In this document: positions 8,081-58,098 of the stretch, one piece after another
Layout of the letters: every line of letters begins with the position of its first letter
Position numbering within the stretch: position 1 is the stretch's first letter
Source of the DNA: Patescibacteria group bacterium
GTDB taxonomy: Bacteria; Patescibacteriota; Patescibacteriia; UBA9570
Direction of reading: 5' to 3'
DNA length: 64,000 bases
Assembly (NCBI GenBank): GCA_041665365.1
Contig: JBAYIY010000006.1
Span: forward strand, 19,602-83,601
The notes under the pieces: model-generated
Seen by the model: the letters and a program-made list of their open reading frames with translations, nothing else
Told to the model about the DNA's origin: nothing
Database searches by the model: none
Position numbers and translations under genes: made by a program

Positions 8081-9019
8081 ATGCCTGGAAAAGTAACAAT
8101 CATAGGGGCGGGTAATGTCGGCACCGCGACAGCCTTTGCCCTGGCTATAGACGGCTCAGCTAATAACATCGTTTTGCTAGACCGAAATTTAGAAAAAGCT
8201 AAAGGCGAGATTATGGATATTGAACATGGCAGCGCCTTTATGCCTCACACTGAATTCATGGGTTCAAAATCATATAAAGATATTAAAGATTCTGATATTG
8301 TTGTGATTACCGCCGGTGCGGCTCAAGCACCCGGTGAATCTAGATTACAGTTATTACAACGTAATGCCGGCATTCTCAAAGGCATTATGAAAGATATAAA
8401 AACTTACTCACCAGATAGTATTGTTATTGTCGTTACCAACCCAGTGGATGTACTGACCTACTTAGCTCTTAAATACTCACATTTTCCGCACAATCGTGTG
8501 TTTGGTACTGGCACGGTGTTAGATTCAGCTCGGTTTAGGTCTTACTTGGCAAAATATTTTTGCGTCAACGCTCATAATGTTCATGCGCACATTTTAGGTG
8601 AACATGGCGATAGTTCTTTCCCAGCTTTGAGTACAGCTAATATTGGTTCTATCCCACTCAGAAAAATGCCGCATTACAATGAAAAAGCGATGTGGGCGAT
8701 TCATCATACCGTTCGCACCGTAGTTTACGATATTATTAAAAAGAAAGGTTCTACTAACCTCGCTATTGCTACCTGTGTCACACAATTAGTGCATGCCATT
8801 CTCAATGACACGCATGAAATATTCCCGGTATCTTCGGTGTTACGCGGTGAATATGGCATCCATGATGTGGCTGTCAGCACACCATCAGTTTTAGGAAAAT
8901 GCGGCATTATTCAAGAATTAGAGATACCGCTTGACGCCAAAGAAAAAGCCGCCTTGAAAAAATCCGTCAAGATTTTAAAGAAGGCGATTCGATCGGTACA
9001 CCATCCTGTCTCTCGATGA
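8081..9019 (+). CDS. ldh: L-lactate dehydrogenase (LDH/MDH superfamily)
   Basis: VTIIGAGNVGTATAFALA Rossmann motif, ITAGAAQAPGESRL with Gln at the substrate-specificity position (LDH-like), GEHGDS motif. Confidence 0.75.
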   Translation: MPGKVTIIGAGNVGTATAFALAIDGSANNIVLLDRNLEKAKGEIMDIEHGSAFMPHTEFMGSKSYKDIKDSDIVVITAGAAQAPGESRLQLLQRNAGILKGIMKDIKTYSPDSIVIVVTNPVDVLTYLALKYSHFPHNRVFGTGTVLDSARFRSYLAKYFCVNAHNVHAHILGEHGDSSFPALSTANIGSIPLRKMPHYNEKAMWAIHHTVRTVVYDIIKKKGSTNLAIATCVTQLVHAILNDTHEIFPVSSVLRGEYGIHDVAVSTPSVLGKCGIIQELEIPLDAKEKAALKKSVKILKKAIRSVHHPVSR

Positions 9020-9116
9020 CTCGAGACATCCTTCCTATTGTAGGAAGAATAAGATAAAGAAATAGATTTTTTCTTACTCCCTCCTACAATAGGAGGGCTG
9101 GGGAGGTGTTTCCGGG
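9019..9116 (+). mobile_element. About 100 bp MITE-like repeat element, copy 1 (two internal hairpins ccttcctattgtaggaagg and ccctcctacaataggaggg)
   Basis: Near-identical to the reverse complement of 57472..57568. Lies between the convergent ldh and tig genes. Confidence 0.7.
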
Positions 9117-9121
9117 ATGGT

Positions 9122-10399
9122 TTATATCGCCAATTCCTTTAATTTATTTACCGCCTGCTCATTTCGTAATATCGTTCGAACATAACCACGATAATCTAAA
9201 CCGTCTAAATGTTTCAGCATATCCGGTTGGTTTTTATACTGTGTCTTACGACGCTCCACCTCAGCATTGATGGCATCTTCGGTAACAGTAATGTTTTCTT
9301 GCTCCGCTACTTGTTTAATAATCAAAGCACCTTGCACACGTTTTGTGGCTGGTTCTTTCCAGCTGGCTCGTAATTCTTCGGCAGTTTTTTTGATATGGGT
9401 AAAATAGTCGGCTAATTTTCCACCCTGATCTTCCACTTGTTCTTTCAGTTCTTCCATCATCCGATCGATTTCGTAATCCAACATCAATTGTGGAATTGGT
9501 TCAAAGTCGGCCTGTTTAATTATGGCTTCAATCACTTCTGATTCAAATTTCTGTTCGGCTTTTTGTTCTAATTCTTTCACTAGGTTCTGTCGAATTTGAT
9601 CTTTTAATTCCTGTAGTGAAGCAAAGTTAAGGCCCTTAGCAAAGTCATCATTCAATTCCGGCAATACTACTTTAGACACTGATTGCACAGTGGCAGTAAC
9701 ATCACATTGTTTACCGGCTAAATGCTTAGCTCCGTAATCATCCGGAAAAGTTACTTGATACTGTTTAGTCTCATGAGCTTTCATTCCCACTAAGGCATCT
9801 TCAAAACCGGGAATAAAATTTTTCTCACCCAGCACTACCGGAGTCGCTTTACCTTGACCACCTTCGATTGAAACACCGGCTAATTTTATATCGAAATCGA
9901 TCACAACTTGATCGCCTAATGCAGCGGCGCGCTCAACTGGTTCATGTTTGGTGCGCAACTTTTTTAAATCCAGCATGGTTTTTTCCAGACGTTTTTCATC
10001 AACCACTTCAACTACCTTCTTTACTGTCACCTTTTGGTAATTTTTCAAATCAACCTTGGGCATAATAGCAAACGTTGCAGTATACACTAATGGGTTGCCA
10101 GGAGCCAACGTATCTAGATTAACATTTGGTTTACCAACAAAATCAATGGTTTCTTGTTTCACGGCATCTGGCAAAGTTGCTGACAATACATCGTCTACTG
10201 CTTCTTGATAAATAGCCATTTCGCCAGCTTTATTTTTTACCATGTCATACGGTGCATGCCCTGGCCGAAAACCAGGAATCGTAATTGATTTCGAAATTCT
10301 TTTGGCGGCCTTTTCCAGGTGTGGTTTTAACTCTTCGACAGAGACCTCAACCTTGAGCAAAACCGTTGTTTTGTCTTGAACAGTTTTAGTAATTTGCAT
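9122..10399 (-). CDS. tig: Trigger factor
   Basis: 425 aa; ITIPGFRPGHAPYDMV ribosome-binding motif region, PPIase middle domain. Confidence 0.85.
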   Translation of the reverse strand: MQITKTVQDKTTVLLKVEVSVEELKPHLEKAAKRISKSITIPGFRPGHAPYDMVKNKAGEMAIYQEAVDDVLSATLPDAVKQETIDFVGKPNVNLDTLAPGNPLVYTATFAIMPKVDLKNYQKVTVKKVVEVVDEKRLEKTMLDLKKLRTKHEPVERAAALGDQVVIDFDIKLAGVSIEGGQGKATPVVLGEKNFIPGFEDALVGMKAHETKQYQVTFPDDYGAKHLAGKQCDVTATVQSVSKVVLPELNDDFAKGLNFASLQELKDQIRQNLVKELEQKAEQKFESEVIEAIIKQADFEPIPQLMLDYEIDRMMEELKEQVEDQGGKLADYFTHIKKTAEELRASWKEPATKRVQGALIIKQVAEQENITVTEDAINAEVERRKTQYKNQPDMLKHLDGLDYRGYVRTILRNEQAVNKLKELAI

Positions 10400-10402
10400 A
10401 TG

Positions 10403-12412: not shown

Positions 12413-13630
12413 TTATTCAGTTTTAGTTGATTCAATTTTTTCTACTTCTTTCTCTTCTTTTTTTTCAGCGTCTTCAGCTCGAATGATATCAATCGACCAA
12501 CCGGTTAAGCGGGAAGCTAACCGGACATTCTGACCACCCTTACCAATCGCTAAGGAGAATTGATCTTCTGGAACTTCAGCGGTGGCAATTTTTTTACCGT
12601 CTACTTCTTTCAATGAAACACTAGTAATTTTAGCTGGAGATAATGCATTGATAATAAACTTAACAGCATCGTCATCATAATGAATGATATCAATTTTTTC
12701 ACCACCAAGTTCTGTAATCACAGTTTGTACGCGGGTACCACGTTGACCAACACATGAACCAATTGGATCAATACTTGGGTCGGTTGCGGCCACGGCAATT
12801 TTGGTACGCGAACCGGCTTCACGGGCAATCGCTTTAACCACCACACTGCCGGAACCAATTTCCGGCACTTCAGCAGCAAACAAAGCCGATACTAAATTAG
12901 CATTGGAGCGTGAGGCAATAATTTCAGGCCCACGGTGCGTTTTTTCGATTGATAGTAATAATACTTTTATGCGTTGACCGGGTTTATATACTTCACTGCG
13001 CACCTGTTCGGCTGGAGGCATAACCGCCACGGCTTGACCCAGATCAACAAAAACCACTTTACCTTCCACCCGTTGAATCATAACGTTGATCACTTCGCCC
13101 ACACGATCTTGATACAACTTGAAGAGTGTTTCCCGTTCGGCTTCACGCAATTTTTGAATAATCACTTGTTTGGCTGTTTGTGCGGCCATTCGACCAAATT
13201 CAGCCGGCACTTCTACTTCATCACGAATTTCATCACCTAATTCAATATCAGCAATTTCCTCTTTCGCTTGGGTATAAGGAATATCTGTTTTAGGATTAAA
13301 GCGTTTTACCGGTTCACCTTTGTCATCTAACGCTGGAGCACTTTCTACTAAACCAGTCGTAGCGTCTTTATCTTTTTGATATTGCTCATATAAAGCATCT
13401 TCCACTACAGTGGTCACTTCAAATATACGCATCGAGCCATCATTAGGGTTAAATTCCACGCGAATGTCTTTTCCCTTCTGGCCCATCTCTTTACGGTAAG
13501 CTACCGCTAAAGCGGTTTCAATTGTTTCTACCACGGCTTCAAACGGAATGCCTTTTTCTTCGCAAATCTGTTTGATGGCCGCACCGACTTCTTTTGGATC
13601 TGGCATAAATATAGAATTGGTTAGAGACAT
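12413..13630 (-). CDS. nusA: Transcription termination/antitermination factor NusA
   Basis: 405 aa; N-terminal domain, S1 and two KH domains. Start codon lies inside a family-A palindrome. Confidence 0.9.
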   Translation of the reverse strand: MSLTNSIFMPDPKEVGAAIKQICEEKGIPFEAVVETIETALAVAYRKEMGQKGKDIRVEFNPNDGSMRIFEVTTVVEDALYEQYQKDKDATTGLVESAPALDDKGEPVKRFNPKTDIPYTQAKEEIADIELGDEIRDEVEVPAEFGRMAAQTAKQVIIQKLREAERETLFKLYQDRVGEVINVMIQRVEGKVVFVDLGQAVAVMPPAEQVRSEVYKPGQRIKVLLLSIEKTHRGPEIIASRSNANLVSALFAAEVPEIGSGSVVVKAIAREAGSRTKIAVAATDPSIDPIGSCVGQRGTRVQTVITELGGEKIDIIHYDDDAVKFIINALSPAKITSVSLKEVDGKKIATAEVPEDQFSLAIGKGGQNVRLASRLTGWSIDIIRAEDAEKKEEKEVEKIESTKTE

Positions 13631-13644
13631 GCCATGGCATGTCT
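13625..13644. repeat. Family-A palindrome, partial copy (agacatgccatggcatgtct) overlapping the nusA start codon
   Basis: 20 bp perfect palindrome identical to the core of copies at 19469, 20783, 53613 and 54114. Confidence 0.7.
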
Positions 13645-13711
13645 TATAAATAAAAAAAGTAGTATTTTTAATACTACTTCACATTAGTCTGTAAAGAGTA
13701 TGGCGGATGGG

Positions 13712-15298: not shown

Positions 15299-16135
15299 GT
15301 GACACCTATGGCGAAACGAATTGGTAAGGATCGACTCACTATCACCATGCGACAAGATGTCTTAGCTGCGCTTGATAGCTTCATTAATGGTGATACCATT
15401 CGTAATCGTTCTCAAGCCATCGAACATATCGTTGCCCGTCATCTTGGCACTGGCATTGATACTTGTGTGATTTTAGCCAGTGGCCGTGAAGATCAATCGA
15501 TCAAATGTTTAAAACGCGTGCAAAATCGGCCTGTGATTGCCTATACCATTGAGATGTTGCGTCTGGCTAACATTCACAACATCATTATGGTAATAAATAA
15601 GAAATGTCCGGATATAAAACAATATTTGGGTAACGGTTTACAATACAGAGTTAATATTCAATATATTGAAGAAGACAATCCGACTGGCACGGCACAATCG
15701 TTGCAGAAGGTAAAAGGTCTGATCGATAAAACATTTTTATTGTTATATGGTGATGTACTGGCCGATATAGATATTCAGGAATTGGTTAGATTTCATCATG
15801 ACATGGATCATATTATAATGACCCTAGCCGTGACCGCCGCCACTAATCCATCTTTGTATGGTGTGGCCGAACTACAAGGTAAACGAATTTATCGCTTAAT
15901 CGAAAAACCAACTCAACTAAAAAAGAGTAATCTCGTCGTCGCTGGTGTGGCTGTGTGTGAACCTGAACTGTTTAAAGAAATACCAGAGCATTGTGAAAAT
16001 AAATATTTAGCCCGAGACATCCTCCCAGATTTAGCCCACCGTGGACAAATTGGCGGTTATCCTTTTTCCAACAAATGGTTTGATGTGTCCCATGAGGATG
16101 AATACACCCGCGCGCAAGCGGAGTGGGTGGAATAA
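15299..16135 (+). CDS. Ribbon-helix-helix (CopG-like) domain fused to a sugar-phosphate nucleotidyltransferase domain
   Basis: N-terminus RLTITMRQDVLAALDSFI... resembles an RHH domain. The rest (ILASGREDQ..., NPTGTAQSL, LLLYGDVLADIDIQ) resembles the NTP_transferase fold. Confidence 0.55.
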   Translation: MTPMAKRIGKDRLTITMRQDVLAALDSFINGDTIRNRSQAIEHIVARHLGTGIDTCVILASGREDQSIKCLKRVQNRPVIAYTIEMLRLANIHNIIMVINKKCPDIKQYLGNGLQYRVNIQYIEEDNPTGTAQSLQKVKGLIDKTFLLLYGDVLADIDIQELVRFHHDMDHIIMTLAVTAATNPSLYGVAELQGKRIYRLIEKPTQLKKSNLVVAGVAVCEPELFKEIPEHCENKYLARDILPDLAHRGQIGGYPFSNKWFDVSHEDEYTRAQAEWVE

Positions 16136-16683
16136 AACATTTTTTTTGGATTGTTATAAATATATTGCCGGGTATAATCCAATTGCCGTGGTGTGCGAAT
16201 AATTTCATCGTAATACCGGGGTTGCCAATGGAAATATTGATCCGGTTGTTTTTTTCGAATATAAAACGTGGTGACACCTTTATACCATCGAATTATATGC
16301 GGTAACGATGTGGGATGTAACATTGGATTATTTTGTTTTGTCACCCCACCGGTTTGATGAAACCCTCTGGTAGAGACGCGATTAATCGCGTCTCTACCAG
16401 AGGGTTTCATGTACACAATCCCATGCATGTGATCCGGCATGATCACAAACGCATCCAATTGCATATGTGGAAAATGTTCCGGAATGTTTAACCAATATTG
16501 ATGGGCTGTTTCACCAATATCCGATAAACACATATAACCGTTTTTAATAAAACCAAATGGGTTTTTGTATCGCTGTTTTACGCAAATCGTAATAAAATAC
16601 CACCCCGGTGTGGCATAATTCCAACCGGTTAATCGAATTGATGGTGTAAAATACCGTTGCCTATATAACATAAAACGCCCCAT
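16057..16683 (-). CDS. IS200/IS605-like HuH-Y1 transposase (REP-associated tyrosine transposase, RAYT-like), copy 1, with in-frame palindrome insert
   Basis: YFITICV...FVIMPDHMHGIV (HuH motif) and RQYIYNNP (catalytic Tyr region). A 52 bp perfect palindrome at 16358..16409 is translated in-frame as GRDAINRVSTRGF. The C-terminal tail probably reads into the convergent gene. Confidence 0.65.
   Translation of the reverse strand: MGRFMLYRQRYFTPSIRLTGWNYATPGWYFITICVKQRYKNPFGFIKNGYMCLSDIGETAHQYWLNIPEHFPHMQLDAFVIMPDHMHGIVYMKPSGRDAINRVSTRGFHQTGGVTKQNNPMLHPTSLPHIIRWYKGVTTFYIRKKQPDQYFHWQPRYYDEIIRTPRQLDYTRQYIYNNPKKMFYSTHSACARVYSSSWDTSNHLLEKG
16358..16409. repeat. Family-A palindrome variant (TGAAACCCTCTGGTAGAGACGCGATT|AATCGCGTCTCTACCAGAGGGTTTCA), 52 bp perfect
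   Basis: Read directly; inside RAYT copy 1. Confidence 0.9.
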
Positions 16684-16773
16684 AAGGCGGCGCTTTTCAT
16701 GAACAGGTTATCACAAATAATTGGTTTACACAATGTTTGATATATAACGTAAACAATCAACCTGGTATATGAC

Positions 16774-16831
16774 GTCGACAATCATCCGGTAGAGACGCGA
16801 TTAATCGCGTCTCTACCGGATGATTGTCGAC
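16774..16831. repeat. Family-A palindrome variant, 58 bp perfect (GTCGACAATCATCCGGTAGAGACGCGATTAATCGCGTCTCTACCGGATGATTGTCGAC)
   Basis: Read directly. Followed by direct repeat ccggatgattgt. Lies at the left edge of the GC-rich island. Confidence 0.9.
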
Positions 16832-17105
16832 CGGATGATTGTTCATTTTAACGGGTGATTTTACGATTCCCCCATTCAGGTGTGACAATCCACCTGGACA
16901 ACCAAAACCAATCCCTGTACAAATGGTGGGTCTTGTTCTTTTTATCGTGGTACACCCGCATTTTTATTGATCACAATTACTGATGTGAGGTGAGTTTGGT
17001 GATGAGTGAAAGTGAGGGTGTACCCAAAAAGTTCCCCCTGCACGGTCCAGTGGGATCGTGTTTTCGTGTACAAAGAAAATCAACCTGAACAAGAAGGAAT
17101 GACAA

Positions 17106-18560
17106 GTGGCCCCCAACAACCTCCCCGTGTACGACAACGGGGATATCTTGAAGTTGACCGTCGCGGTCGACCCGAACATCGTTCGGGCTGACATGCCGGC
17201 GGTGAATCGCACGTCTGCGGAACTCAAGAACCTGGGCACGATCGTCCAGGACGCCCTGATCGAAGAGGGCAAGGAACTGGTGCAGGCCGGAATCGGCGAT
17301 GCCAACACGGAGTACACGCTCCGTGATTTGGCTGAGGCCATCAACTCGGCGGCACACCGGGATGTGCTGCCAATCTCTGGCCTCGTCACGCCGGACGCAC
17401 CGGCGTTCCACCTCGAGTACGGCGATGTTCGGGGTATCCACGCCCTGATCACTGTGCTCAAAAACTTCCTCGGCGTCCTCCTCGGCATCGAGGTTCGCGA
17501 CTACGTGACGATCACCCACGGTGGGCGCTCGGCGGTCTTTATGGCCGTCCGTTCATTCACGCAGTTCATGGTCGCTACCCTGAAGTCGATGGGCGTCGAG
17601 GGACCGCCAATGGTGGCGGTTCCAGTGGAAACCTGGGGAACCTACCCCAACATCGTCGCCCAGGCGCTGGGCGACGGGGTATTCCACCCGATCCCCTGCA
17701 GAGACGGCCTGCTCGACGCCGAAGCACTCGACGAAGCGTGCACGCGCAACCCGCGCATTCGCATGCTCATCTTCTGCAATCCGGTGAATCCGAGCGGCCG
17801 GACGTATGGATCCGATCGCATGGCGCGGATCGCCAGGATCGTGGCCAAACACAAGTTGTGCGTCCACGCCGATGACATGTACGCGATGTTTGCGTGGGTT
17901 CACCCCCATCGCAGCATCCTGCGCGCTGCCGCGGCGCTGGCGCACTCGGGTGAAAAGGAGGTTGGAGAGTGGGTCGCATCCCACACCACCCTCCTCACGG
18001 GTGTCATGAAGGCCGGGGGCTCGGGTTCCCGTGTGAACTTCATGGTCATCCCGAACGACAATCTGCGGGCTCGCTTCGTCGCGAACCAGGGCGACCTGTA
18101 CGGTCCGCCGAACATGATGGGGCAGCTGTTGCAGCTCGCCTTCATCAAGCACGGTGGGCCGGAGCGCGTCTGGCTCGAGATGAAGGAGCGGCGTGATGCC
18201 CTCCAGGCCAAGCTGACCGAGGTCGCCGGACGTATCACCGGCTGCCCGATCACCCTGACCTGGAGTGCTATGGAAGGCGGTTTCTACACCGCCATGCACC
18301 TCAACGGCATCGGTGGAATGAAGTACACCGATCGCAGCGGTACCTCCCGGGTCATCATGACGGGCGAGGATATGGCTCGGTTCCTCGTCCAGCGGGCTGG
18401 CATCGTCGCCACGCCCGATGTCGCGGCGTGCGTCGGTGACGTCACCTTCGCGCGCATCGCGTATGGCATGATGCGTCCGGAGACCGTCGAGGTTTTCGGC
18501 AACCAGTTGGCAGACGCCGTGATCGGGCTGTGCGCCGAAAACGGCCACAACCCGAAGTAG
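17106..18560 (+). CDS. PLP-dependent aminotransferase (class I/II fold) on a GC-rich, foreign-looking island
   Basis: 484 aa, GTG start with AGGA 8 nt upstream. NPSG, ADDMY and a VMKAGGSGSRVNF (SxSK..G.R.G-like) lysine motif. Codons are strongly GC3-biased, unlike the rest of the window. Confidence 0.6.
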   Translation: MAPNNLPVYDNGDILKLTVAVDPNIVRADMPAVNRTSAELKNLGTIVQDALIEEGKELVQAGIGDANTEYTLRDLAEAINSAAHRDVLPISGLVTPDAPAFHLEYGDVRGIHALITVLKNFLGVLLGIEVRDYVTITHGGRSAVFMAVRSFTQFMVATLKSMGVEGPPMVAVPVETWGTYPNIVAQALGDGVFHPIPCRDGLLDAEALDEACTRNPRIRMLIFCNPVNPSGRTYGSDRMARIARIVAKHKLCVHADDMYAMFAWVHPHRSILRAAAALAHSGEKEVGEWVASHTTLLTGVMKAGGSGSRVNFMVIPNDNLRARFVANQGDLYGPPNMMGQLLQLAFIKHGGPERVWLEMKERRDALQAKLTEVAGRITGCPITLTWSAMEGGFYTAMHLNGIGGMKYTDRSGTSRVIMTGEDMARFLVQRAGIVATPDVAACVGDVTFARIAYGMMRPETVEVFGNQLADAVIGLCAENGHNPK

Positions 18561-18792
18561 CTTCCCTAGGTTCGCCGTTGAGGTAAAAGGTGGGAAGTAC
18601 GCTCTCCCCCTGGTCACGCGCACTTGACCGCGCGAAAGTGACCACCCCAACGGCGGCCTTTGGGGAAGAACAAGACAACGAGGAGAACAAGTGTGTGTGC
18701 TATATCCAGCGGGACGTAGCACACCGAATGTTCTCCTCCCTTCAGCAATCTGTATCAATTTATTGGTACAGATTGATTAGGGAAAAAATATA

Positions 18793-18837
18793 AAAACCCG
18801 GTAGAGACGTTGTATGCAACGTCTCTACCGGGTTTTT
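18793..18837. repeat. Family-A palindrome variant (AAAAACCCGGTAGAGACGTTG-tatg-CAACGTCTCTACCGGGTTTTT)
   Basis: Read directly: 20 bp arms with a 4 nt loop. Confidence 0.85.
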
Positions 18838-18855
18838 GTGATTATTATGTGTATG

Positions 18856-18903
18856 GTCGGGGGTGAGCGCATGATGTGTGGCGCTCAAACCCCCGAACCT
18901 GTG
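18856..18903. repeat. GC-rich roughly 48 bp hairpin-forming direct repeat, copy 1
   Basis: ggtcgggggtgagcgcatgatgtgtggcgctcaaacccccgaacctgt; second copy at 19174. Confidence 0.6.
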
Positions 18904-19173
18904 TGTGATCAATATCGCTGTGATTTCGGGATCCCGTGATCTAGAACCTCGTATGACCCCCTCTCTGCAGGGGCCACTTCCTGTTGTTCCGGCAATCTCC
19001 GATAAGCGAATCCAAGAAACTCCCCATCCCAATCCCAGGGGTCAGACTCTTGATCTGAGCCGTTTTTTTCACTTTCGTTTTCAGGTTTCTTTTCAGGCAC
19101 ACAGCCTCCTTTGGCTGAGCCATATTAGTTTATAATCATAAAAAAAACAAACACCTTTGTAGGTGTTGTGATG

Positions 19174-19222
19174 TCGGCCAGGGGTGAGCGCATGCTATCT
19201 GCGCTCGAACCCCCGGCCTGTT
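19174..19222. repeat. GC-rich roughly 48 bp hairpin-forming direct repeat, copy 2
   Basis: gtcggccaggggtgagcgcatgctatctgcgctcgaacccccggcctgt. Confidence 0.6.
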
Positions 19223-19468
19223 GCTCAGCAGTAGCACGGTTCGTCGGACGTAGTCCAACGAGGTTTCACGATTTTTTCCCCGTTTTCGGCGGGAGTTTTT
19301 GCCAGCTGAATCGCCGGCTCAGTCTCCAGCCTCAGTGGGGTTTTCTCGATCTTTTTGTCGTTTTCTTTCGCCACATGTCCTCCTATGAGCTGGGGTATCG
19401 TAATAAAAAATATCATCATGTCAAACCAAAAAAGTATGATGAATGCCAAAATAATAACAATGTGTACA

Positions 19469-19514
19469 TTAAAAACAGTAGAGACATGCCATGGCATGTC
19501 TCTACTGTTTTTAA
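19469..19514. repeat. Family-A palindrome, 46 bp perfect (TTAAAAACAGTAGAGACATGCC|ATGGCATGTCTCTACTGTTTTTAA)
   Basis: Read directly. At the right edge of the GC-rich island. Confidence 0.9.
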
Positions 19515-19529
19515 TTGGGGAAGGTATGT

Positions 19530-20782: not shown

Positions 20783-20811
20783 GTTACAGACATGCCATGG
20801 CATGTCTTTAC
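20783..20811. repeat. Family-A palindrome, one-mismatch copy (GTTACAGACATGCCATGGCATGTCTTTAC)
   Basis: Between the aminotransferase stop and the gdh start; likely terminator hairpin. Confidence 0.8.
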
Positions 20812-20837
20812 TAATTAAAGACGCGCCTATTATATGC

Positions 20838-44740: not shown

Positions 44741-44757
44741 TATTCGTACACTGCGAT
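44723..44757. repeat. Family-B palindrome, short copy (ATCGCAGTGTACGAATA-A-TATTCGTACACTGCGAT)
   Basis: Between convergent tyrS and galT; supplies the tyrS stop codon. Confidence 0.85.
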
Positions 44758-52650: not shown

Positions 52651-54077
52651 AATGGTATGTGTGGCTGAGCATTGTGCTGCTGGCACTTGGTTTGTGCAGC
52701 TTACAAGGCACAGTTGTTTTTCCTGATCCAGATGCGTTTTACCATGTTGGCGTGGCCCAACATTTATGGGAGTTTGGCTTTGCTAAAACATTTTCCGGAT
52801 TGCAACCCACTACTTTAGGGCAACACTTTGTCGATCAGCATTTCTTATTACATTTTACCCTAGCACCATTTGTGTGGATGATGAGCCCTGGAGTTGGCAC
52901 CAAAGTATATATGGTAGTTGTAGTATTAGTCTGTTTAAGTGTCATGTCTTACATGCTATATTGGATCAAAGCACAGACTTGGTGGGTTGGAGTTATGCTT
53001 TTGGTAGCAACTAACGCCTGGTTATTTCGTATAAATTTAGTAAAGGCCACGCCGTTGGCTTTGATTTTGTTATTTTTATCACTGCTAGCTTTACAAACAA
53101 AAAAATATAAATGGTTACTGCTAATAGGTGGTCTCTATGTCTGGACACACGGTGGGTTTATTTTATTGCCCATTCTAGTTGGAGTTTGGAGCCTGTTAGC
53201 CAAACAATGGAAACCGGTCGCGTATGTATTATGTGGAATCAGTGTGGCTATTTTAGTCCACCCAGCCTTTCCAAATAATCTATTATTTTATTGGGAACAA
53301 CTTGTTCAAATCGGCGCAGTTAATTATCAAACTGTGATTGGGGTAGGAGGAGAGTGGTATCCCTATGAACCCGGTTCATTAGTATTTGGTCATACTATAA
53401 TTTTTTCCATTCTAATAATTAGTCTTGTCCTGCATGTCTTACAAAGACGTCCGTTTACTGTGGCGCAAATATGTTTTTCTATTTACACCGTAATATTTTT
53501 CATTCTCACATTAAAATCCAAAAGATACGTGGAATATTTTTCACCCATGTTAGCCTGCACAGCGGCATTGTATGTGCCAACGGTGATAAAATCAAAAGTA
53601 GAGACACACAATAAAGTAGAGACACGCCATGGCATGTCTCTACTTTTGATTCCCACGGCAATTATGATTGTTGTCCTGGTACCGGTTGTAATTCAAGAAA
53701 TTATTACCGCAAAAACTGATTTGCAATCTGGCCAAGCGTTAACCTATTTACATGGAGCCGGAGAATTTTTAGATACTTTACCACCAGGGCAAGTCGTTGC
53801 CCCCAGTGATTGGGATGATTTTCCAGCTCTGTGGCGAGCCGCACCACACCAACAATTTTTAATTGGATTAGATCCGACTTTTCTATATCTGGCTAATCCT
53901 ACTCGTTATGAAGCTTGGCGCGCCCTCACCTTAGGTGAAGACAATGATGTTGATACAGTAGGGGCAGATTATTATGTGGTAGCCAAAGACCATAAATCTA
54001 TGCATAAACATTTGGTAAAAATTGATGCCGTGACGGTTTATGAAGACGATGAGGCTTGGGTGTTAACAACCCCATAA
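52647..54077 (+). CDS. Polytopic membrane protein, GT-C-fold glycosyltransferase-like (paralog 2), with in-frame palindrome-encoded insert
   Basis: Same conserved blocks as paralog 1. Residues KSKVETHNKVETRHGMSLLLIP are encoded by a family-A palindrome at 53594..53648. Confidence 0.4.
   Translation: MKWYVWLSIVLLALGLCSLQGTVVFPDPDAFYHVGVAQHLWEFGFAKTFSGLQPTTLGQHFVDQHFLLHFTLAPFVWMMSPGVGTKVYMVVVVLVCLSVMSYMLYWIKAQTWWVGVMLLVATNAWLFRINLVKATPLALILLFLSLLALQTKKYKWLLLIGGLYVWTHGGFILLPILVGVWSLLAKQWKPVAYVLCGISVAILVHPAFPNNLLFYWEQLVQIGAVNYQTVIGVGGEWYPYEPGSLVFGHTIIFSILIISLVLHVLQRRPFTVAQICFSIYTVIFFILTLKSKRYVEYFSPMLACTAALYVPTVIKSKVETHNKVETRHGMSLLLIPTAIMIVVLVPVVIQEIITAKTDLQSGQALTYLHGAGEFLDTLPPGQVVAPSDWDDFPALWRAAPHQQFLIGLDPTFLYLANPTRYEAWRALTLGEDNDVDTVGADYYVVAKDHKSMHKHLVKIDAVTVYEDDEAWVLTTP
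53594..53648. repeat. Family-A palindrome (one mismatch) with partial tandem duplication, inserted in-frame in a CDS
   Basis: aaagtagagacaca + aaagtagagacacgccatggcatgtctctacttt. Confidence 0.85.
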
Positions 54078-54111: not shown

Positions 54112-54113
54112 TG

Positions 54114-54141
54114 TAGAGACATGCCATGGCATGTCTCTACT
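54114..54141. repeat. Family-A palindrome, 28 bp perfect core (GTAGAGACATGCCATGGCATGTCTCTAC)
   Basis: Read directly; between convergent genes. Confidence 0.9.
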
Positions 54142-54148
54142 GTTTTTA

Positions 54149-54559
54149 TCAACCAGTACTGACTGAACTGGCACCGGTGAAGTTTAACAAATTGTTAATC
54201 ACATACACAGATACGCCCCAACCAGCCAAAATGATAACTAAACCAATCAAAGCAGCGTAGAGAGTTTTCTTCGCTCCTTCGACTTTTTCTTCATTACCAC
54301 CGGCTGTCATCCAACGGAAACCACCGACTAAAATTAAAACAACTGCGATTAAGGCAAGAATACCCAAAACCCAGTTAATAACACTAATCACCAAAGCTTC
54401 TGGGCTAGCATTGCCTAGAATCATGGCATCAGTGATGCCGGTATTGTCTAACTGATCGACTGTTAACGAGCTAGCGTTGGTGGCCGCAGCAGTTAACATA
54501 CCCACGGCACCTATTCCAAGATAGGCGAAACGGGTGACTGTACTTTTGAACTTATTCAT
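54149..54559 (-). CDS. Secreted pilin-like protein with C-terminal two-TM hairpin module (family member 1)
   Basis: Signal peptide, then INWVLGILALIAVVLILVGGFRWMTAGGNEEKVEGAKKTLYAALIGLVIILAGWGV. Confidence 0.55.
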   Translation of the reverse strand: MNKFKSTVTRFAYLGIGAVGMLTAAATNASSLTVDQLDNTGITDAMILGNASPEALVISVINWVLGILALIAVVLILVGGFRWMTAGGNEEKVEGAKKTLYAALIGLVIILAGWGVSVYVINNLLNFTGASSVSTG

Positions 54560-54667
54560 AGTGTTCTTTAAGTATTAAATTAATTATTAATGGAACTATA
54601 CATAGATTAAACGATTTTGTAAAGACTAGGTTGACTTCTCGGGAATTGTAATGGTAAAGTACACACC

Positions 54668-54982
54668 ATGAAACGCTTGGCTTTTAGTTTGGAGTTCGAT
54701 TCAGATAAAACGCTGCAAACCTATACGAAGCTTGGAAATACCGATCCGGTATCCATTGTGTTCACAATTGTAAATACAGCCTTAGTATTTTTAGGTGTAG
54801 TAACATTAGTACTTATTATAGTGGCTGGCTTCTTATGGCTAACGGCCGGTGGTAATGAAGAACAAATTAAAAAATCCAAAGACATTATGAAAGGTGCTGT
54901 GATTGGTTTGGTGATAGTGTTAGGTTCCTACGGTATTGCTCAATATCTCTTTACCGCCATTCAATTAGCCACTACTAGTTAA
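54668..54982 (+). CDS. Pilin-like two-TM hairpin module protein (member 2, no obvious leader)
   Basis: VNTALVFLGVVTLVLIIVAGFLWLTAGGNEEQIKKSKDIMKGAVIGLVIVLGSYGIAQYLF. Confidence 0.5.
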   Translation: MKRLAFSLEFDSDKTLQTYTKLGNTDPVSIVFTIVNTALVFLGVVTLVLIIVAGFLWLTAGGNEEQIKKSKDIMKGAVIGLVIVLGSYGIAQYLFTAIQLATTS

Positions 54983-54985
54983 TTT

Positions 54986-55387
54986 ATGCACATACGTTTA
55001 CCTCTATTATTATCGTCACTGACCATCATGGTTGGTGTAACATTAAGCTCTATATCAGTAGATGCCGCGAGTATTTCAATCGACCCATTAGGAGGTACTG
55101 AGTTTTACGGCAGTCTAAGTGATACTGGTTTAGGTACAGCCGATCCGGTCACGGTAGCGTCACAGATTGTGAATGTGTTCTTACGTTTGTTAGGAGCCAT
55201 TACCGTTATGTTAATGATTTACGGTGGTTGGACATGGATTTGGGCGCGTGGTAATCAAGAAGAGGTTACCAAAGCCAAAGAAATTATTACCGGTGCTGTA
55301 ATTGGCCTAGTGATTGTACTGGCATCATTTGGTATTATGCAATATCTGTTTTATTATTTGACCAAAATTACCAATGCGGTTAAGTAG
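54986..55387 (+). CDS. Secreted pilin-like two-TM hairpin module protein (member 3)
   Basis: Signal peptide, then IVNVFLRLLGAITVMLMIYGGWTWIWARGNQEEVTKAKEIITGAVIGLVIVLASFGIMQYLF. Confidence 0.55.
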   Translation: MHIRLPLLLSSLTIMVGVTLSSISVDAASISIDPLGGTEFYGSLSDTGLGTADPVTVASQIVNVFLRLLGAITVMLMIYGGWTWIWARGNQEEVTKAKEIITGAVIGLVIVLASFGIMQYLFYYLTKITNAVK

Positions 55388-56228
55388 ATGGATTTTTTTG
55401 GTTTGTTTGCTAGTAGCGCCAGTTTGGGTTAGAGCCGCCGATGCACCCTCTGACACTGAAATTGAAATGAGCGCCGGTTCTACTTCTGCCACAGCTGGTG
55501 TACAATTTGATCCGTCAAAAAATATTATTGGTAATCCGGATAATGATCAAAAATTATCAGTTGGATCAGTTTTGAGATTAACTTATTTATCCGGTGCATC
55601 AGATCCGTTATCTATTACCATCAATGTAATAAATGTGGCTTTAAGTTTTTTAGGATTAACATCATTAATAATGATGTTATATGCAGGATTAAAGTGGTTT
55701 TTTGCTCGGGAAAATGAGGAAGAAGCCACCAAGGCCAAAGAGATTATTATTGGTGCCGTGATCGGCTTGGTCATTACACTGGGGTCGTACGGTATTGTAC
55801 AACTATTATTTAGTCAATTTACAATTGCTACAGCATTTATCAAATCGATCATTCCGATAGCTTATGCTGATAGCGGAGTGACAATAGAACCAGCGACATT
55901 GCCATTTGATCCAAGTAAGGCCTCTGGTGGCTATGTGGCCGTAACTAGGGCAAGCTTAGTGCCAATTACAGGCATTAATTTAGGAAAAACTGATCCTTTA
56001 TCTGTAACCATTAATGTGGTTAATATTTTACTATCATTATTAGCCACTGCCTTTTTGGGTTTGATGTTGTATACTGGTGGTGTGTGGGTTTGGGCACGAG
56101 GTAACGAAGAAATAATCTTGCGGGCGCGGGATACATTGTTTCGGGCTGTGCTCGGGTTAGTTATTGTGCTCGGAGCATACGGCATTGCTGAATTAGTGTT
56201 TACTTTAATTAGTCAGCAAACAACCTAA
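55374..56228 (+). CDS. Secreted protein with two tandem pilin-like hairpin modules (member 4)
   Basis: Module a: NVALSFLGLTSLIMMLYAGLKWFFARENEEEATKAKEIIIGAVIGLVITLGSYGIVQLLF. Module b: VNILLSLLATAFLGLMLYTGGVWVWARGNEEIILRARDTLFRAVLGLVIVLGAYGIAELVF. Confidence 0.55.
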   Translation: MRLSRWIFLVCLLVAPVWVRAADAPSDTEIEMSAGSTSATAGVQFDPSKNIIGNPDNDQKLSVGSVLRLTYLSGASDPLSITINVINVALSFLGLTSLIMMLYAGLKWFFARENEEEATKAKEIIIGAVIGLVITLGSYGIVQLLFSQFTIATAFIKSIIPIAYADSGVTIEPATLPFDPSKASGGYVAVTRASLVPITGINLGKTDPLSVTINVVNILLSLLATAFLGLMLYTGGVWVWARGNEEIILRARDTLFRAVLGLVIVLGAYGIAELVFTLISQQTT

Positions 56229-56234
56229 TTTATT

Positions 56235-56639
56235 ATGATGCGAAGAATAATATTAAGTGGTTTTATCCTATTAGTTAGTGCCCAACAGACACTGGCAGTT
56301 GGTTTTCTGCCAACCAATGATGATACTGGGTTGCTAAACACAACAGCTTCAAACTCATTAGCCTTAGGGAAAGCTCAACCAACCACAGTGGCGTTAAATC
56401 TAATAAATGCCGGACTGTCATTGTTGGCGGCGGTGTGCGTGGGGTTATTAATTTATGCTGGGTTCTTATGGGTGTGGGCCAGGGGAAATACAGAAGAAGT
56501 AAAAAAAGCCAAAGATATTCTCACTGGTACAGTACTTGGTTTAATTGTAATATTGGCGTCATTGGGAATAACTCGATTTGTGTTTACGACAGTAGGAAAC
56601 ATTACCGGCGCAACCATCGTTAATAACGCATCTGAATAA
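56235..56639 (+). CDS. Secreted pilin-like two-TM hairpin module protein (member 5)
   Basis: LINAGLSLLAAVCVGLLIYAGFLWVWARGNTEEVKKAKDILTGTVLGLIVILASLGITRFVF. Confidence 0.55.
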   Translation: MMRRIILSGFILLVSAQQTLAVGFLPTNDDTGLLNTTASNSLALGKAQPTTVALNLINAGLSLLAAVCVGLLIYAGFLWVWARGNTEEVKKAKDILTGTVLGLIVILASLGITRFVFTTVGNITGATIVNNASE

Positions 56640-56648
56640 GATACATAT

Positions 56649-57026
56649 ATGATAAAAAAAATATCCTCAATCTTAATAACTAGTTCATTAATCGCATTGC
56701 CGTTGTTATCACTGGCTGAATATACTCCACAAGCCGTGGTGTTCGATCCAAACTCAAATGTGGAAAGAAACACTGGTTTAGGAAACGCTACACCAGGTGG
56801 TATTGCCGCCGGCGTAATTAATTGGGTATTGGGTATACTAGCCTTACTAGCGATTTGTTTAGTAATTTACGGTGGAATTTTATGGATGACATCGGCCGGC
56901 AATGAGGAACAAGTGAAAAAAGCCAAAGATATACTTTTTGGTGCGTTAATTGGCGTGGTAATTATTTTAGCATCCTATGGTGCTACCCAATATGTCTTTA
57001 CGAACCTGGTCGATATTACTACTTAA
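56649..57026 (+). CDS. Secreted pilin-like two-TM hairpin module protein (member 6)
   Basis: VINWVLGILALLAICLVIYGGILWMTSAGNEEQVKKAKDILFGALIGVVIILASYGATQYVF. Confidence 0.55.
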   Translation: MIKKISSILITSSLIALPLLSLAEYTPQAVVFDPNSNVERNTGLGNATPGGIAAGVINWVLGILALLAICLVIYGGILWMTSAGNEEQVKKAKDILFGALIGVVIILASYGATQYVFTNLVDITT

Positions 57027-57390
57027 CTTTTTATTAGTTGGTGTTTTACCAATTATTCCGGCGTTGGCTTATGAACAGCGGCCGTTGGATTATTATCAAA
57101 ATGATATTCAGGTCAATACCGGCTTAGGTGGCTATGATAATGTTGGTAGTGAAGGGCCAGTGGAGACAGCCTCGCGGGCAATCAATATATTACTTGGTTT
57201 ACTAGGTACATTAACTTTGTGTTTAGTTATTTACGCCGGCTTTTTGTGGATGACAGCACAAGGTAATGAGGAACAAGCCAAAAAAGCCAAAGATATTTTA
57301 TCTGGTGCTGTGATTGGAATAGTCATCATTCTCGCCTCCTACGGAATAACCAATTACGTTTTTAGGAGTTTAGTGAATATCACAAACTAA
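56977..57390 (+). CDS. Secreted pilin-like two-TM hairpin module protein (member 7)
   Basis: AINILLGLLGTLTLCLVIYAGFLWMTAQGNEEQAKKAKDILSGAVIGIVIILASYGITNYVF. The start probably lies at an internal Met (MSLRTW...), given the overlap with member 6. Confidence 0.5.
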   Translation: MVLPNMSLRTWSILLLNFLLVGVLPIIPALAYEQRPLDYYQNDIQVNTGLGGYDNVGSEGPVETASRAINILLGLLGTLTLCLVIYAGFLWMTAQGNEEQAKKAKDILSGAVIGIVIILASYGITNYVFRSLVNITN

Positions 57391-57408
57391 CACTACAAAT
57401 AATAAGCC

Positions 57409-57437
57409 AAATATCTGTAGTAGTACTACAGATATTT
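57409..57437 (+). terminator. Perfect palindromic hairpin (AAATATCTGTAGTA|GTACTACAGATATTT) after the pilin-like gene run
   Basis: Read directly, 17 nt after the stop codon. Confidence 0.4.
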
Positions 57438-57471
57438 TGATAAAATTCTGTAGTTTCACTAAATTAATCTT

Positions 57472-57568
57472 CCCGGAATACACCTCCCCAACCCTCCTAT
57501 TCTAGGAGGGAGCAAGAAATAATCTAATTCTTTATCTTACCCTTCCTACAATAGGAAGGGTGCTCGAG
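57472..57568 (-). mobile_element. About 100 bp MITE-like repeat element, copy 2 (inverted relative to copy 1 at 9019)
   Basis: Reverse complement aligns along nearly its whole length with 9019..9116, including both internal hairpins and the aagataaagaa spacer. Confidence 0.7.
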
Positions 57569-57678
57569 TCCGCGAGGGCGGGATGGTGTTCTGAGATTCA
57601 AGACTTCAAGTTGACAGTACTGATTTTTATTGATAACCTTTATCAATAAAGAGCGCCACCTAAGATTGGGGCGCTTTT

Positions 57679-58050
57679 ATGTATATACGATCGTCGAATC
57701 GAAATATTCTTCAATATGATCAGAAGCTTAGATGGATTGCAAAATCATTGAGAAAAAATGCTACAGAAGCTGAACGGTTACTCTGGCAAGAATTACGATC
57801 CAGAAAACTTGGTTACAAGTTTAGACGTCAACATGCACTCCATGGTTACATTGTTGATTTTTATTGTTACGCAAAAATGTTAGTAATTGAAGTTGATGGA
57901 TCTATTCATGATGCTAAAATAGATCATGATCGCTCAAAAGATGACATTTTAAAATTAAACGGTTTCAAAGTGATTCGGTTCACAAATGAAGCAGTTATAT
58001 ACCATCTCACAGAAGTCACAAATACCATACAGCATTATCTAGCTCAATAA
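57679..58050 (+). CDS. DUF559 (Vsr-like / restriction-endonuclease-fold) domain protein
   Basis: LWQELRSRKLGYKFRRQHALHGYIVDFYCYAKMLVIEVDGSIHD...KDDILKLNGFKVIRFTNEAV, the typical DUF559 pattern. Bracketed by copies of the ccttcctacaataggaagg hairpin. Confidence 0.7.
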   Translation: MYIRSSNRNILQYDQKLRWIAKSLRKNATEAERLLWQELRSRKLGYKFRRQHALHGYIVDFYCYAKMLVIEVDGSIHDAKIDHDRSKDDILKLNGFKVIRFTNEAVIYHLTEVTNTIQHYLAQ

Positions 58051-58098
58051 ATGCTCCTGCTCCCTTCCTACAATAGGAAGGGCTGGGGATGGTGTACT
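58050..58098. repeat. Partial copy of the MITE-like element (ctcccttcctacaataggaagggctggggatggtgtactc)
   Basis: Shares the hairpin and the ggctgggga(t)ggtgt tail with copy 1. Confidence 0.65.

Follow-up and report, generated by a model that had tools for sequence, protein, structure and literature searches.

REP/REPIN–RAYT systems consist of short palindromic repeats scattered between genes, mostly at gene 3' ends, together with a low-copy gene for a small nuclease that is bracketed by such repeats; the gene-less copies outnumber the gene, and no target-site duplication is seen. The enzyme of these systems is an HUH/Y1 transposase and the repeats carry a GTAG head. MITEs are fold-back structures with terminal inverted repeats, whose gene-less copies have their ends in common with a gene-bearing parent insertion sequence. 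Orphan palindromic families, such as BoxC of E. coli and the rhizobial intergenic mosaic elements (RIME), are GC-rich imperfect palindromes of 50-130 bp found in tens of copies per genome, for which we know of neither an origin nor a mobilising enzyme. BoxC is 56 bp long and present in 22-32 copies (PMC2267715). IS200/IS605 elements are very small, have subterminal hairpins that matter for recognition and make no target-site duplication; they use an HUH single-strand transposase, lack terminal inverted repeats and insert beside a specific tetra- or pentanucleotide. The EDxHD homing endonuclease I-Bth0305I (PDB 3R3P), in turn, is an intron-encoded selfish enzyme of 266 aa with N-terminal NUMOD DNA-binding repeats, which cuts a pseudopalindromic site (PMC3239194).

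Here, we analyse a stretch of 64,000 nucleotides from a Patescibacteria group bacterium (hereafter, the window) that carries a predicted nuclease gene of the DUF559 family between hairpin-rich inverted repeats. Our findings make it very likely that gene and repeats form a genuine DUF559 cassette, one that has been duplicated, varies in position and has gene-less derivatives. The cassette shares with REP/REPIN–RAYT systems the features of repeats and gene listed above, but its enzyme is a predicted Vsr-like PD-(D/E)XK hydrolase rather than an HUH/Y1 transposase, its ends read ACACC.../...GGTGT as C-rich/G-rich terminal inverted repeats without a GTAG head, and the duplication took in gene and ends together. 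The window also holds, at 16.0-16.85 kb, a separate candidate REP/Y1-transposase system (Y1_Tnp match at 16057-16683), which shows that the two systems are distinct; GTAG heads occur in the window only in another repeat family, GTAGAGAC....

Like MITEs, the elements described here are small (72-120 bp), carry terminal inverted repeats, can fold back on themselves and include gene-less derivatives that have their ends in common with a gene-bearing element, in this case the DUF559 cassette. They differ from MITEs and their parent insertion sequences in that they have neither a DDE nor any other known transposase (DUF559 is not one), that no target-site duplication is detectable and that their one gene is short, with a product of only 123 aa. 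The resemblance to IS200/IS605 lies in small size, hairpins and the lack of a target-site duplication. The catalytic fold and the conserved E/D/H/D residues are those of EDxHD homing endonucleases, and by analogy we propose that a selfish lifestyle and a preference for (pseudo)palindromic sites may be shared as well; in contrast to I-Bth0305I, the window protein is free-standing, being composed of the nuclease domain and a short N-terminal helical region, and its gene is accompanied by inverted-repeat and hairpin ends of its own. BoxC and RIME have only architecture and polarity in common with the window module, their sequences being unlike it.

An earlier note on this DNA had described a MITE-like element of about 100 bp in inverted copies. 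The inverted copies are real, since a repeat finder pairs 9027-9116 with 57473-57562 as inverted arms of 90 nt with 88% complementarity, but their size is closer to 120 bp. In a wider alignment, copy 1 runs from 8998 to about 9117-9121 and its counterpart, copy 2, from 57590 down to about 57468. They are two copies of a 120-bp module, with ~88% identity between 8998-9117 and 57471-57590 in reverse complement. Its plan consists of C-rich/G-rich terminal inverted repeats (ACACCWTCCCC ... GGGGAKGGTGT) enclosing three short hairpins, and the hairpin pattern CCYTCCTANWNTAGGARGG occurs five times in the window (9030, 9079, 57492, 57541 and 58063), the expectation from 100 shuffles being 0.

Copy 1 (8998..9121, + strand), delimited by alignment, repeat finder and RNA fold, is a gene-less module. 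It begins with the left terminal repeat ACACCATCC (8998-9006), followed by hairpins hp0 (9011-9026) and hp1 (9030-9048), an A/T-rich spacer, hp2 (9079-9097) and the right terminal repeat GGGGAGGTGT (9100-9109) with a TTCCGGGATGG extension. In the predicted RNA fold (z = -5.0) ACACCATCC and GGGGAGGTGT pair with each other; like a MITE, the 120-bp module is a small non-coding element with terminal inverted repeats. Both strands of the long module copies fold well (z -3.3 to -5.4). Copy 2 (57468..57590, - strand) is a full module, inverted with respect to copy 1, in which a C-rich terminal repeat ACACCTCCCC (57480-57489), hp2 (57492-57510), hp1 (57539-57561), hp0 (57562-57580) and a G-rich repeat GGGATGGTGT (57580-57589) follow one another. 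The partial third copy reported before is also real, and corresponds to a half module at 58061..58098 (+ strand) with hp1 CCCTTCCTACAATAGGAAGGG (58061-58081), the terminal repeat GGGGATGGTGT (58085-58095) and ACT (58096-58098). Positions 58061-58095 of this copy 3 read CCCTTCCTACAATAGGAAGGG-CT-GGGGATGGTGT, that is, hp1 and the tail end of copy 2 without its 17-nt inner hairpin. Looser terminal-repeat searches in the window returned false positives within coding regions, such as GGGATAGGTGT at 63668, and a role of GGGGAGGTGT as Shine-Dalgarno sequence of a small ORF was dropped because the downstream ATGs differ between copies.

Copy 1 had been placed downstream of ldh and convergent with tig. 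Pfam identifies both genes, on opposite strands (ldh at 8081-9019, + strand; tig at 9122-10399, - strand), but the module overlaps the end of ldh instead of following it: it starts with ACACCATCC within the last ldh codons, and its left end constitutes the final six codons and the stop codon of the gene. Five ldh orthologs are 307 aa long and terminate in ...AIRSV[K/R/N]; in the window, the ldh product terminates in ...AIRSVHHPVSR.

Copies 2 and 3 are the left and right ends, respectively, of a cassette of ~630 bp (57468-58098) composed of a full module, an 88-bp leader, the DUF559 gene and a half module. As had been observed, the gene (57679..58050, + strand, 123 aa) lies between the two copies. 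Its product matches Pfam PF04480 with E = 3e-33 and 114.4 bits (cut-off 20.6) over profile positions 3-108 of 109, and PDB 3HRL with E values of 4e-17 as single sequence and 1e-27 as profile; the profile also matches 3R3P (I-Bth0305I) at E 8e-6. Residues E32, D60, E71, D73, H77, D84 and D88 are invariant among seven homologs, and the 3R3P alignment places D60 at the position of the mutated D196 and D84 at D222 of I-Bth0305I, whose residue roles are taken from PMC3239194. These results place the protein among the Vsr-like (EDxHD-type) nucleases and show that its catalytic residues are intact. Pfam detects no NUMOD or HTH N-terminal region, the only matches being DUF559 and the related MTES_1575 nuclease model over the same stretch, and there is no intron or intein around the gene, which is free-standing; elsewhere, DUF559 genes sit between operon genes (sufB-sufC, paaD-paaZ) or within the alr 3' end. 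A connection to the Vsr recognition site (CTWGG) through the CTAGG of some loops was considered and dropped, being inconsistent across copies.

The leader (57591..57678, + strand, 88 bp) contains a promoter-like motif, TTGACA...GATAAC, and a conserved stem-loop, AAAGAGCGCC...GGGGCGCUUUU, that stops directly at the ATG. The motif is not called by a promoter consensus scan, which makes the evidence for a promoter weak. The leader is 87% identical to that of the second cassette described below, and the stem-loop is also predicted in this cassette (L081) and in four of the distant relatives (L084, L086, L087 and L088), folding clearly above shuffled sequence in the window, L084 and L086 only.

On another contig (L081) we found a second cassette, with a DUF559 paralog of 86% amino-acid identity and the same brackets of one full and one half module. 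Identity between the two cassettes is 87-95% within them and falls to 41-51%, the random level, in the flanks; copy 2 is 89% identical to L081 9790-9912 and copy 3 is 95% identical to L081 10373-10418, with homology stopping just past copy 3. Homology thus ends at the outer inverted repeats of two otherwise unrelated loci, in support of the small mobile cassette suspected in the earlier note. Between the two genes dN/dS is 0.12, and the non-coding ends, at 89-95% identity, are better conserved than synonymous sites (pS = 0.40); gene and ends are both under purifying selection. The NCBI protein accessions of the two cassettes are only 129 apart, suggesting that both belong to the same metagenome-assembled Patescibacteria genome (MAG). 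Near the second cassette, at L081 8998-9069, lies a 72-bp gene-less derivative, so that ~87 kb of the MAG hold four module copies: two full, one half and one of 72 bp.

The SpoIIM-TsaD-PCC-HD-LeuRS gene block allows the position of the cassette to be compared among genomes. In L081 the cassette precedes HD and the 72-bp module lies at the PCC 3' end; in L088 a DUF559 element sits between TsaD and PCC; and L089 is without a DUF559 element in this block, with a TsaD-PCC gap of 9 bp. Among these related genomes with the same gene order, the position of the DUF559 element varies. The target-site duplications that the earlier note had suggested looking for were not found: on direct reading, no direct repeat adjoins any of the four copies whose ends are defined, and the best direct alignments between flanks of the two cassettes score only 12-17. 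No clean empty site was found either, the ldh-tig spacer of a relative (L102) holding a simpler hairpin followed by GGGGGTTGGTGT, a similar tail.

In Patescibacteria from other samples, five more DUF559 genes (L083, L084, L086, L087 and L088), with 48-63% identity, have the same termini and keep the order of terminal repeat, hairpin, leader, gene, final hairpin and terminal repeat. From L083 to L087 the final hairpin overlaps the DUF559 stop codon, while in L088 the reading frame passes through the hairpin and stops at the terminal repeat. An identical TAT/ATA insertion is present at both ends of the L087 element, and the two ends of one element co-vary. When the hairpins are aligned, pairing holds in 90% of cells, with compensatory change in four of the ten pairs; none of 500 shuffles matches this. 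The earlier note had reasoned that its reading would fall if no further copies existed and other DUF559 genes lacked the hairpins; the paralog with its cassette, the 72-bp derivative and these five relatives with the same termini argue the opposite.

The association extends to other phyla: in Proteobacteria, Deinococcus and cyanobacteria, too, DUF559 genes have versions of the module on their flanks, each particular to its lineage. Mutually similar upstream and downstream flanks at z > 7 were found at 15 of 27 DUF559 loci, compared with 3 of 62 window genes, the DUF559 gene itself among them, at the laxer threshold of z > 6. Polarised hairpins reach 4.09 per kb beside DUF559, a ~35-fold enrichment over the remainder of these loci (0.116 per kb). 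The pairing of gene and module is conserved from Patescibacteria to these three groups. Recognisable modules are absent at some DUF559 genes, namely in the phage-like L090, in P. aeruginosa (L113) and on the left side of E. coli ycjD; a scan of viral contigs gave only three DUF559 loci, and the phage-like L090 is without modules.

In S. meliloti, the module flanking the DUF559 gene recurs at no fewer than 39 places in one replicon; these repeats may be RIME. In E. coli, the repeat between ycjD (DUF559) and fabI is a hairpin followed by TTAGGGTGAGGGG, with a median of 16 per genome, and is presumably BoxC, an identification supported only by copy number. Gene-less modules are thus more numerous than DUF559 genes. 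The window variant itself is rare, as deduced from scans of 596 Gb of genomes and JGI metagenomes (a collection outside which the JGI sample of the same strain lies) with the exact pattern TAGGARGGN{1,3}TGGGGAN{0,1}GGTGT. They returned 23 genome and 55 metagenome single matches, nearly all due to chance (without hairpin, in unrelated GC-rich taxa) and none with a DUF559 gene nearby; the sole clear gene-less relative is in the Gottesmanbacteria MAG MFJL01000039 (L009, the same sequence as L028).

Taken together, these comparisons lead us to regard as probable, with a good deal of room for doubt, that the repeats of ~100 bp are gene-less copies of a compact selfish element driven by the nuclease that its full version encodes. 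The basic unit comprises an ACACCWTCCCC repeat, one to three palindromic hairpins with a pyrimidine-rich 5' arm (CCCTYCCTA-nnn-TAGGRAGGG) and a complementary GGGGAKGGTGT repeat; full-length members carry the single gene for the 123-aa Vsr-like DUF559 nuclease between module ends. Gene-less members (8998-9121 in the window, 8998-9069 in L081) would then relate to the full element as MITEs do to an insertion sequence, or REPINs to the RAYT gene. The link between nuclease and module is correlative, and from it we infer how the element may move. Within its own module family, the nuclease would recognise the palindrome together with the terminal repeat and nick or cut there, and the break would be repaired by copying an element-bearing copy, in a homing-like gene conversion. 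In this way gene-less modules would acquire the gene, which would also pass from one genome to another where flanking homology exists. Cleavage of this kind may, in addition, set off the copying of modules to new sites near gene 3' ends. For gene-less modules, the nuclease would act in trans. As far as we know, Vsr-type nucleases are purely hydrolytic and lack strand-transfer activity, so that insertion at new, non-homologous sites is not accounted for. The missing target-site duplications and clean empty site, the mere four module copies in ~87 kb, the rarity of this sequence variant and the DUF559 genes without recognisable modules also count against the nuclease-driven reading.

A competing explanation, which we consider unlikely but worth serious attention, is that DUF559 is a free-standing homing endonuclease directed at palindromic repeats that were already dispersed, as an independent, REP-like family with other means of spread. 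The gene would home into the repeat centre, so that a palindromic target split into halves would look like a pair of terminal repeats. Among characterised selfish enzymes the closest relative is indeed I-Bth0305I, whose pseudopalindromic site (PMC3239194) counts for this explanation, and simple elements, e.g. in Deinococcus, resemble a module split by the gene; in the window, however, the cassette gene lies beside a complete module, not in a module centre. In L103, the alr 3' end is present on either side of the element, in two copies (137 bp) that have diverged by 9 synonymous and 3 non-synonymous codon differences. This points to recombination as the route by which the element and foreign flanking DNA were acquired, which suits the nuclease-driven element and the homing explanation alike. 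The IS200-like Y1 transposase fragment of the window could in principle move hairpin repeats, but it goes with a different palindrome family, GTAGAGAC...GTCTCTAC. Moreover, although its sequence changes from phylum to phylum, the module remains attached to DUF559, which speaks for obligate partnership and against opportunistic targeting. Homing and the nuclease-driven selfish element overlap, because both need the nuclease to cut the module.

Much less probable is the idea that the hairpins are host regulatory structures, either bidirectional terminators or mRNA-stabilising stem-loops, kept alike by gene conversion, with DUF559 as an ordinary repair gene that happens to lie between two of them. 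Every copy does lie at gene 3' ends or between convergent genes, the long copies fold well on both strands, and the window has other repeated palindromes that resemble terminators, with T-runs. However, read directly, the sequence has no T-run after hp1 or hp2, and a terminator scan of 57300-58200 calls none at the module hairpins, its sole call being an unrelated hairpin at 57409-57437. Rfam assigns no family at gathering score to any module, finding only tRNAs in the window, L081, L088 and L089. The duplication of the 630-bp unit, gene included, with sharp ends at an unrelated locus, its varying position between genomes of the same gene order, the co-variation of the two ends within each element and the copy that overwrites the ldh end all speak against a regulatory origin. 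Finally, a chance effect of C-rich/G-rich palindromes or an assembly or binning artefact, for which the compositionally simple arms (C/T versus G/A) and the chance singles of the pattern scans might be cited, is refuted by the five hairpin matches where none of 100 shuffles gives even one, the 88% identity of copies over 90-120 nt, flank z-scores far above shuffles and control genes, the duplicated cassette and the identical sequence in two independent assemblies (ENA ERZ27249449, JGI 3300037810).

Our literature searches found no published description of an association between DUF559 and such repeats, BoxC and the rhizobial families included. The family is large, with 19,127 clusters at E <= 1e-10 in a representative library and > 38,000 clusters at 50% identity, and we know of no function for its members, E. 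coli YcjD among them, although one structure in the family has been solved (3HRL). The same pairing of gene and hairpin repeat in many unrelated bacteria may give this large uncharacterised family a role. Tentatively, and with somewhat more doubt than belief, we propose that DUF559 nucleases are dedicated enzymes of selfish palindromic-module elements across bacterial phyla, paralleling REP-RAYT on a Vsr-like hydrolase. The link provides a testable hypothesis in a model organism, i.e. that YcjD cuts or binds its neighbouring repeat family.

The elements rewrite gene 3' ends, as seen for ldh in the window and alr in L103, and create spurious fused or extended reading frames, which is relevant to the annotation of small Patescibacteria genomes. 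If our proposal is true, it would account for how orphan repeat families, E. coli BoxC and the rhizobial mosaic elements among them, arose and spread; YcjD and its relatives would gain a function through a mobility mechanism not yet described for any transposable element, and a hydrolytic Vsr-type nuclease would join the few enzymes that power small mobile elements.

The inverted copies of a repeat near 9 kb and 57.5 kb of the window, described in the earlier note, were confirmed by the repeat finder, which returned arms at 9027-9116 and 57473-57562 (90 nt, 88% complementary), by a shuffle test, in which the hairpin pattern CCYTCCTANWNTAGGARGG had five matches in the window and none in 100 shuffles, and by a wider alignment, which set the left edge of copy 1 at 8998, its right edge at about 9117-9121 and copy 2 at about 57468-57590. 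The partial third copy also holds, as hairpin hp1 plus the tail GGGGATGGTGT at 58061-58095. Read in the direction of copy 1, the module consists of a terminal repeat on the left, ACACCATCC(C); the inner hairpin hp0; CTCGAG; hairpin hp1 (CCCTTCCTA-TTG-TAGGAAGGG); some 30 nt of A/T-rich spacer; hairpin hp2 (CCCTCCTA-CAA-TAGGAGGG); and CT, after which come the right terminal repeat, GGGGAGGTGT, and TTCCGGG. The module ends are inverted repeats and are paired in the predicted fold, with z between -3.3 and -5.4 for either strand of the long copies. Between 57.5 and 58.1 kb, read on the + strand, a full module, inverted with respect to copy 1, is followed by an 88-bp leader, the DUF559 ORF (57679-58050), 10 nt, hp1 and the terminal repeat; the outer ends of this ~630-bp cassette are therefore again ACACCTCCCC...GGGGATGGTGT. 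The window sequence lies within an 87.6-kb metagenome contig (ENA ERZ27249449 k141_139995), and a near-identical 3.4-kb contig is found in JGI 3300037810. NCBI's naming of the protein, together with at least six Pfam T4SS_pilin paralogs near the cassette, assigns the contig to a Patescibacteria (CPR) bacterium.

The observation is thus real, and its reading as a small mobile cassette is supported and considerably extended. The unit is present at two loci, and its position varies among relatives. A protein search returned a paralog, P0002, 86% identical to the window DUF559 protein and located in the same hairpin-flanked cassette on another contig of the same sample (locus L081; JGI copy L082). 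The accessions MFA6475300.1 and MFA6475429.1, 129 apart, suggest that both belong to one MAG. The neighbourhood of L081 (TsaD, PCC, hypothetical gene, DUF559, HD, LeuRS) differs from that of the window, and aligned homology spans (AAYCWTCYCGGAWN)CACCTCCCC to GGGGATGGTGTA, with none outside: identity is 89% in the left module, 87% in the leader, 87% in the coding sequence and 95% at the right end, whereas the flanks show 51% and 41%, a random level. Between the two paralogs, the DUF559 gene has a dN/dS of 0.12 and a synonymous difference of 0.40; since the non-coding ends are better kept than silent sites, the ends themselves are under constraint. Selection acts, then, on both the DUF559 gene and the element ends. 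A gene-less derivative of 72 bp that shares the cassette's termini lies at 8998-9069 of L081 as well, overlapping the 3' end of the PCC gene.

Orthologs of the HD protein (77-78% identity) occupy the same HD/LeuRS gene block in relatives. L088 has a DUF559 element between TsaD and PCC (terminal repeats AAACCTTCCC and GGAGAAGGTTT) and none before HD; L089 lacks DUF559 in the block, with 9 bp separating TsaD from PCC. A 504-bp non-coding stretch between PCC and the HD gene of L089 (4498-5000) has no Rfam match and appears more G+C-rich than its surroundings. At the site of copy 1, five ldh orthologs (77-81% identical) end in ...AIRSV[K/R/N] at 307 aa, and the ldh product of the window ends in ...AIRSVHHPVSR, its extra codons and stop being module sequence. 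Gene order at ldh/tig is identical in L102, where the 58-bp spacer (3425-3482) contains AAACCAAAA, a single hairpin (CCCCCTTTCG-agaaa-CGAAAGGGGG) and then TTGGTGT, with the hairpin tail GGGGGTTGGTGT. Where the window has the 120-bp version, L102 has the module in minimal form, with one hairpin; given this hairpin and GGGGGTTGGTGT, the site holds a simpler relative and is not strictly empty. Target-site duplications, for which a search had been proposed, were not found by flank alignment or direct reading of the ends. The cassette is a discrete, duplicated and positionally variable unit.

DUF559 homologs 48-63% identical, from other samples (L083, L084/L085, L086, L087 and L088), share one plan: left terminal repeat, variable inner hairpin, hp1-type hairpin, leader with a conserved stem-loop finishing at the ATG, gene, final hairpin and right terminal repeat. 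In L083-L087 the stop codon falls within the final hairpin, whereas the L088 reading frame passes through that hairpin and stops at the terminal repeat. The element ends co-vary, being ACACCTATCCCC and GGGGAGATAGGTGT in L087, and in an alignment of 12 hairpins 90% of the cells are paired, with compensatory change in four of ten pairs (0 of 500 shuffles as good). In the window, the stem-loop AAAGAGCGCC...GGGGCGCUUUU (57649-57678) abuts the DUF559 start codon and leaves no obvious Shine-Dalgarno free; found at the same position in L081, L084, L086, L087 and L088, it resembles a terminator or translational block ahead of the nuclease gene, and folds clearly above shuffled sequence in only three of six loci. 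In L103, a metagenome contig of 42% G+C, a DUF559 element lies within the 3' end of alr (alanine racemase), with a 137-bp alr stretch on both sides (1161-1297 and 1991-2127, 90% identical). The copies differ by nine synonymous and three non-synonymous codons, indicating that the two diverged in separate genomes, each in a functional gene, and were joined only later; the element apparently came in along with a foreign version of the gene end.

The window protein matches Pfam DUF559 (E = 3e-33) and PDB 3HRL (4e-17 with the single sequence, 1e-27 with the profile), and its profile also reaches I-Bth0305I (3R3P), a Vsr-like homing endonuclease, at 8e-6. Residues E32, D60, E71, D73, H77, D84 and D88 are invariant and correspond to EDxHD residues (PMC3239194). 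The family comprises 38,333 clusters at 50% identity (E <= 1e-3). The 150 top-ranking hits include some proteins with DUF559 domains in tandem, two or three of them, and some long ones in which the domain is embedded (in the representative library, P0362, of 377 aa with three DUF559 stretches, and P0363, of 1214 aa). Such proteins may reflect tandem elements, or host ORFs whose frame continues through an element inserted in them.

The pairing of gene and module holds across phyla. We examined DUF559 genes from viral contigs (L091, L092) and a plasmid collection covering, among others, Azospirillum, Sinorhizobium, Shinella, Sphingomonas, Methylobacterium, Neisseria, Klebsiella, Photobacterium, Deinococcus, Picosynechococcus, Pseudanabaena and Synechocystis, and most are bracketed by lineage-specific forms of the same module plan, such as CCCTCACCCCAA-CCCTCTCCCGCAAGCGGGAGAGGG...GGGTGAGGG in L091 and CCCACCCCCCTCCC-GG-hairpin...hairpin-CT-GGGAGGGGGGTGG in Deinococcus (L097). 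Similarity between upstream and downstream flanks exceeds z = 7 in 15 of 27 DUF559 loci; as a control, three of 62 window genes, the DUF559 gene among them, pass a laxer cut of z > 6. Within 200 nt of the DUF559 ORF ends (21 of 28 loci), perfect hairpins with the pyrimidine arm first reach 4.09 per kb; the remainder of those loci has 0.116 per kb. No modules were seen in the phage-like L090 or in P. aeruginosa L113, and E. coli ycjD has a module on one side only.

One S. meliloti replicon has gene-less modules in at least 39 places, and the repeat beside ycjD has a median of 16 copies per genome across the full set of 5,426 complete E. coli genomes. The latter repeat is probably BoxC, the agreement being in copy number only (PMC2267715). 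In L100, about 46 bp of the ycjD 3' end recurs some 70 bp downstream of the gene (980-1017 and 1086-1125), followed by this multicopy repeat, a hairpin plus TTAGGGTGAGGGG (1195-1262). The ycjD-fabI spacer (MG1655 1351039-1351407) has no annotated feature in the MG1655 RefSeq record. Elsewhere, DUF559 stands between adjacent operon genes (Sphingomonas sufB-sufC, L110; Deinococcus paaD-paaZ, L107; gatB/yqeY-dnaG, L094), a placement in conserved operons that suits a selfish gene that has inserted there better than a housekeeping one.

Other repeats share the window. A second palindromic family, with core GTAGAGAC...GTCTCTAC and unrelated to the module, lies mostly at gene 3' ends, often beside T-runs (16057-16831, 13621-13656, 18801-18836, 19478-19513, 20784-20819, 53616-53651 and 54113-54148). 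Perfect 27-29-bp palindromes of this family (16357-16410, 16774-16831) occur inside and beside an ORF at 16057-16683 (-) with a partial IS200-like Y1_Tnp match (E = 4.5e-7), and together they look like a REP/REPIN system with its RAYT gene, possibly decayed, in a Patescibacteria genome. This transposase fragment adjoins a G+C island (16000-20000; 51% versus 39-44% in the rest of the window) with long ORFs on both strands that lack a Pfam match (e.g., 17553-18758). A third family consists of long perfect palindromes, GCAGTGGACGAATAATATTCGTCCACTGC (23986-24040, 24450-24506 and 44726-44754), two of which lie on either side of an ORF of 120 aa with a TTG start (24116-24478); this ORF lacks a Pfam match and scores as high as the DUF559 gene in the flank-similarity control (z about 11). 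The DUF559 cassette itself sits between convergent pilin genes, in the middle of a cluster of small genes in both orientations (54149-59889) with at least six clear Pfam T4SS_pilin (PF18895) matches and three weaker ones; the 3' halves of these genes share DNA repeats (repeat finder families D3, D5 and D6).

In its workings the element resembles a REP/REPIN-RAYT pair, or a MITE and its parent insertion sequence, but it lacks what defines these two systems: a Y1 or DDE enzyme, a GTAG head and target-site duplications. With the EDxHD homing endonucleases it has the fold and catalytic motif in common, but not their intron or intein setting or their NUMOD domain. In a homing-like step, the DUF559 nuclease would recognise the palindrome and terminal repeat of its own module and cut there; repair from the element-bearing copy would spread the gene into gene-less modules and, given flanking homology, between genomes. 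This step is favoured by the kinship with I-Bth0305I and by the L103 element lying between two alr 3'-end copies. The weakest link is the arrival of modules at new, non-homologous sites, for which a purely hydrolytic enzyme would not account.

The literature searched, which covers few subscription journals, yielded no description of an association between DUF559 and repeats, and an earlier account is possible. Together, our findings identify a small selfish element with an associated nuclease, and the chance is considerable that it exemplifies a widespread class not yet described.
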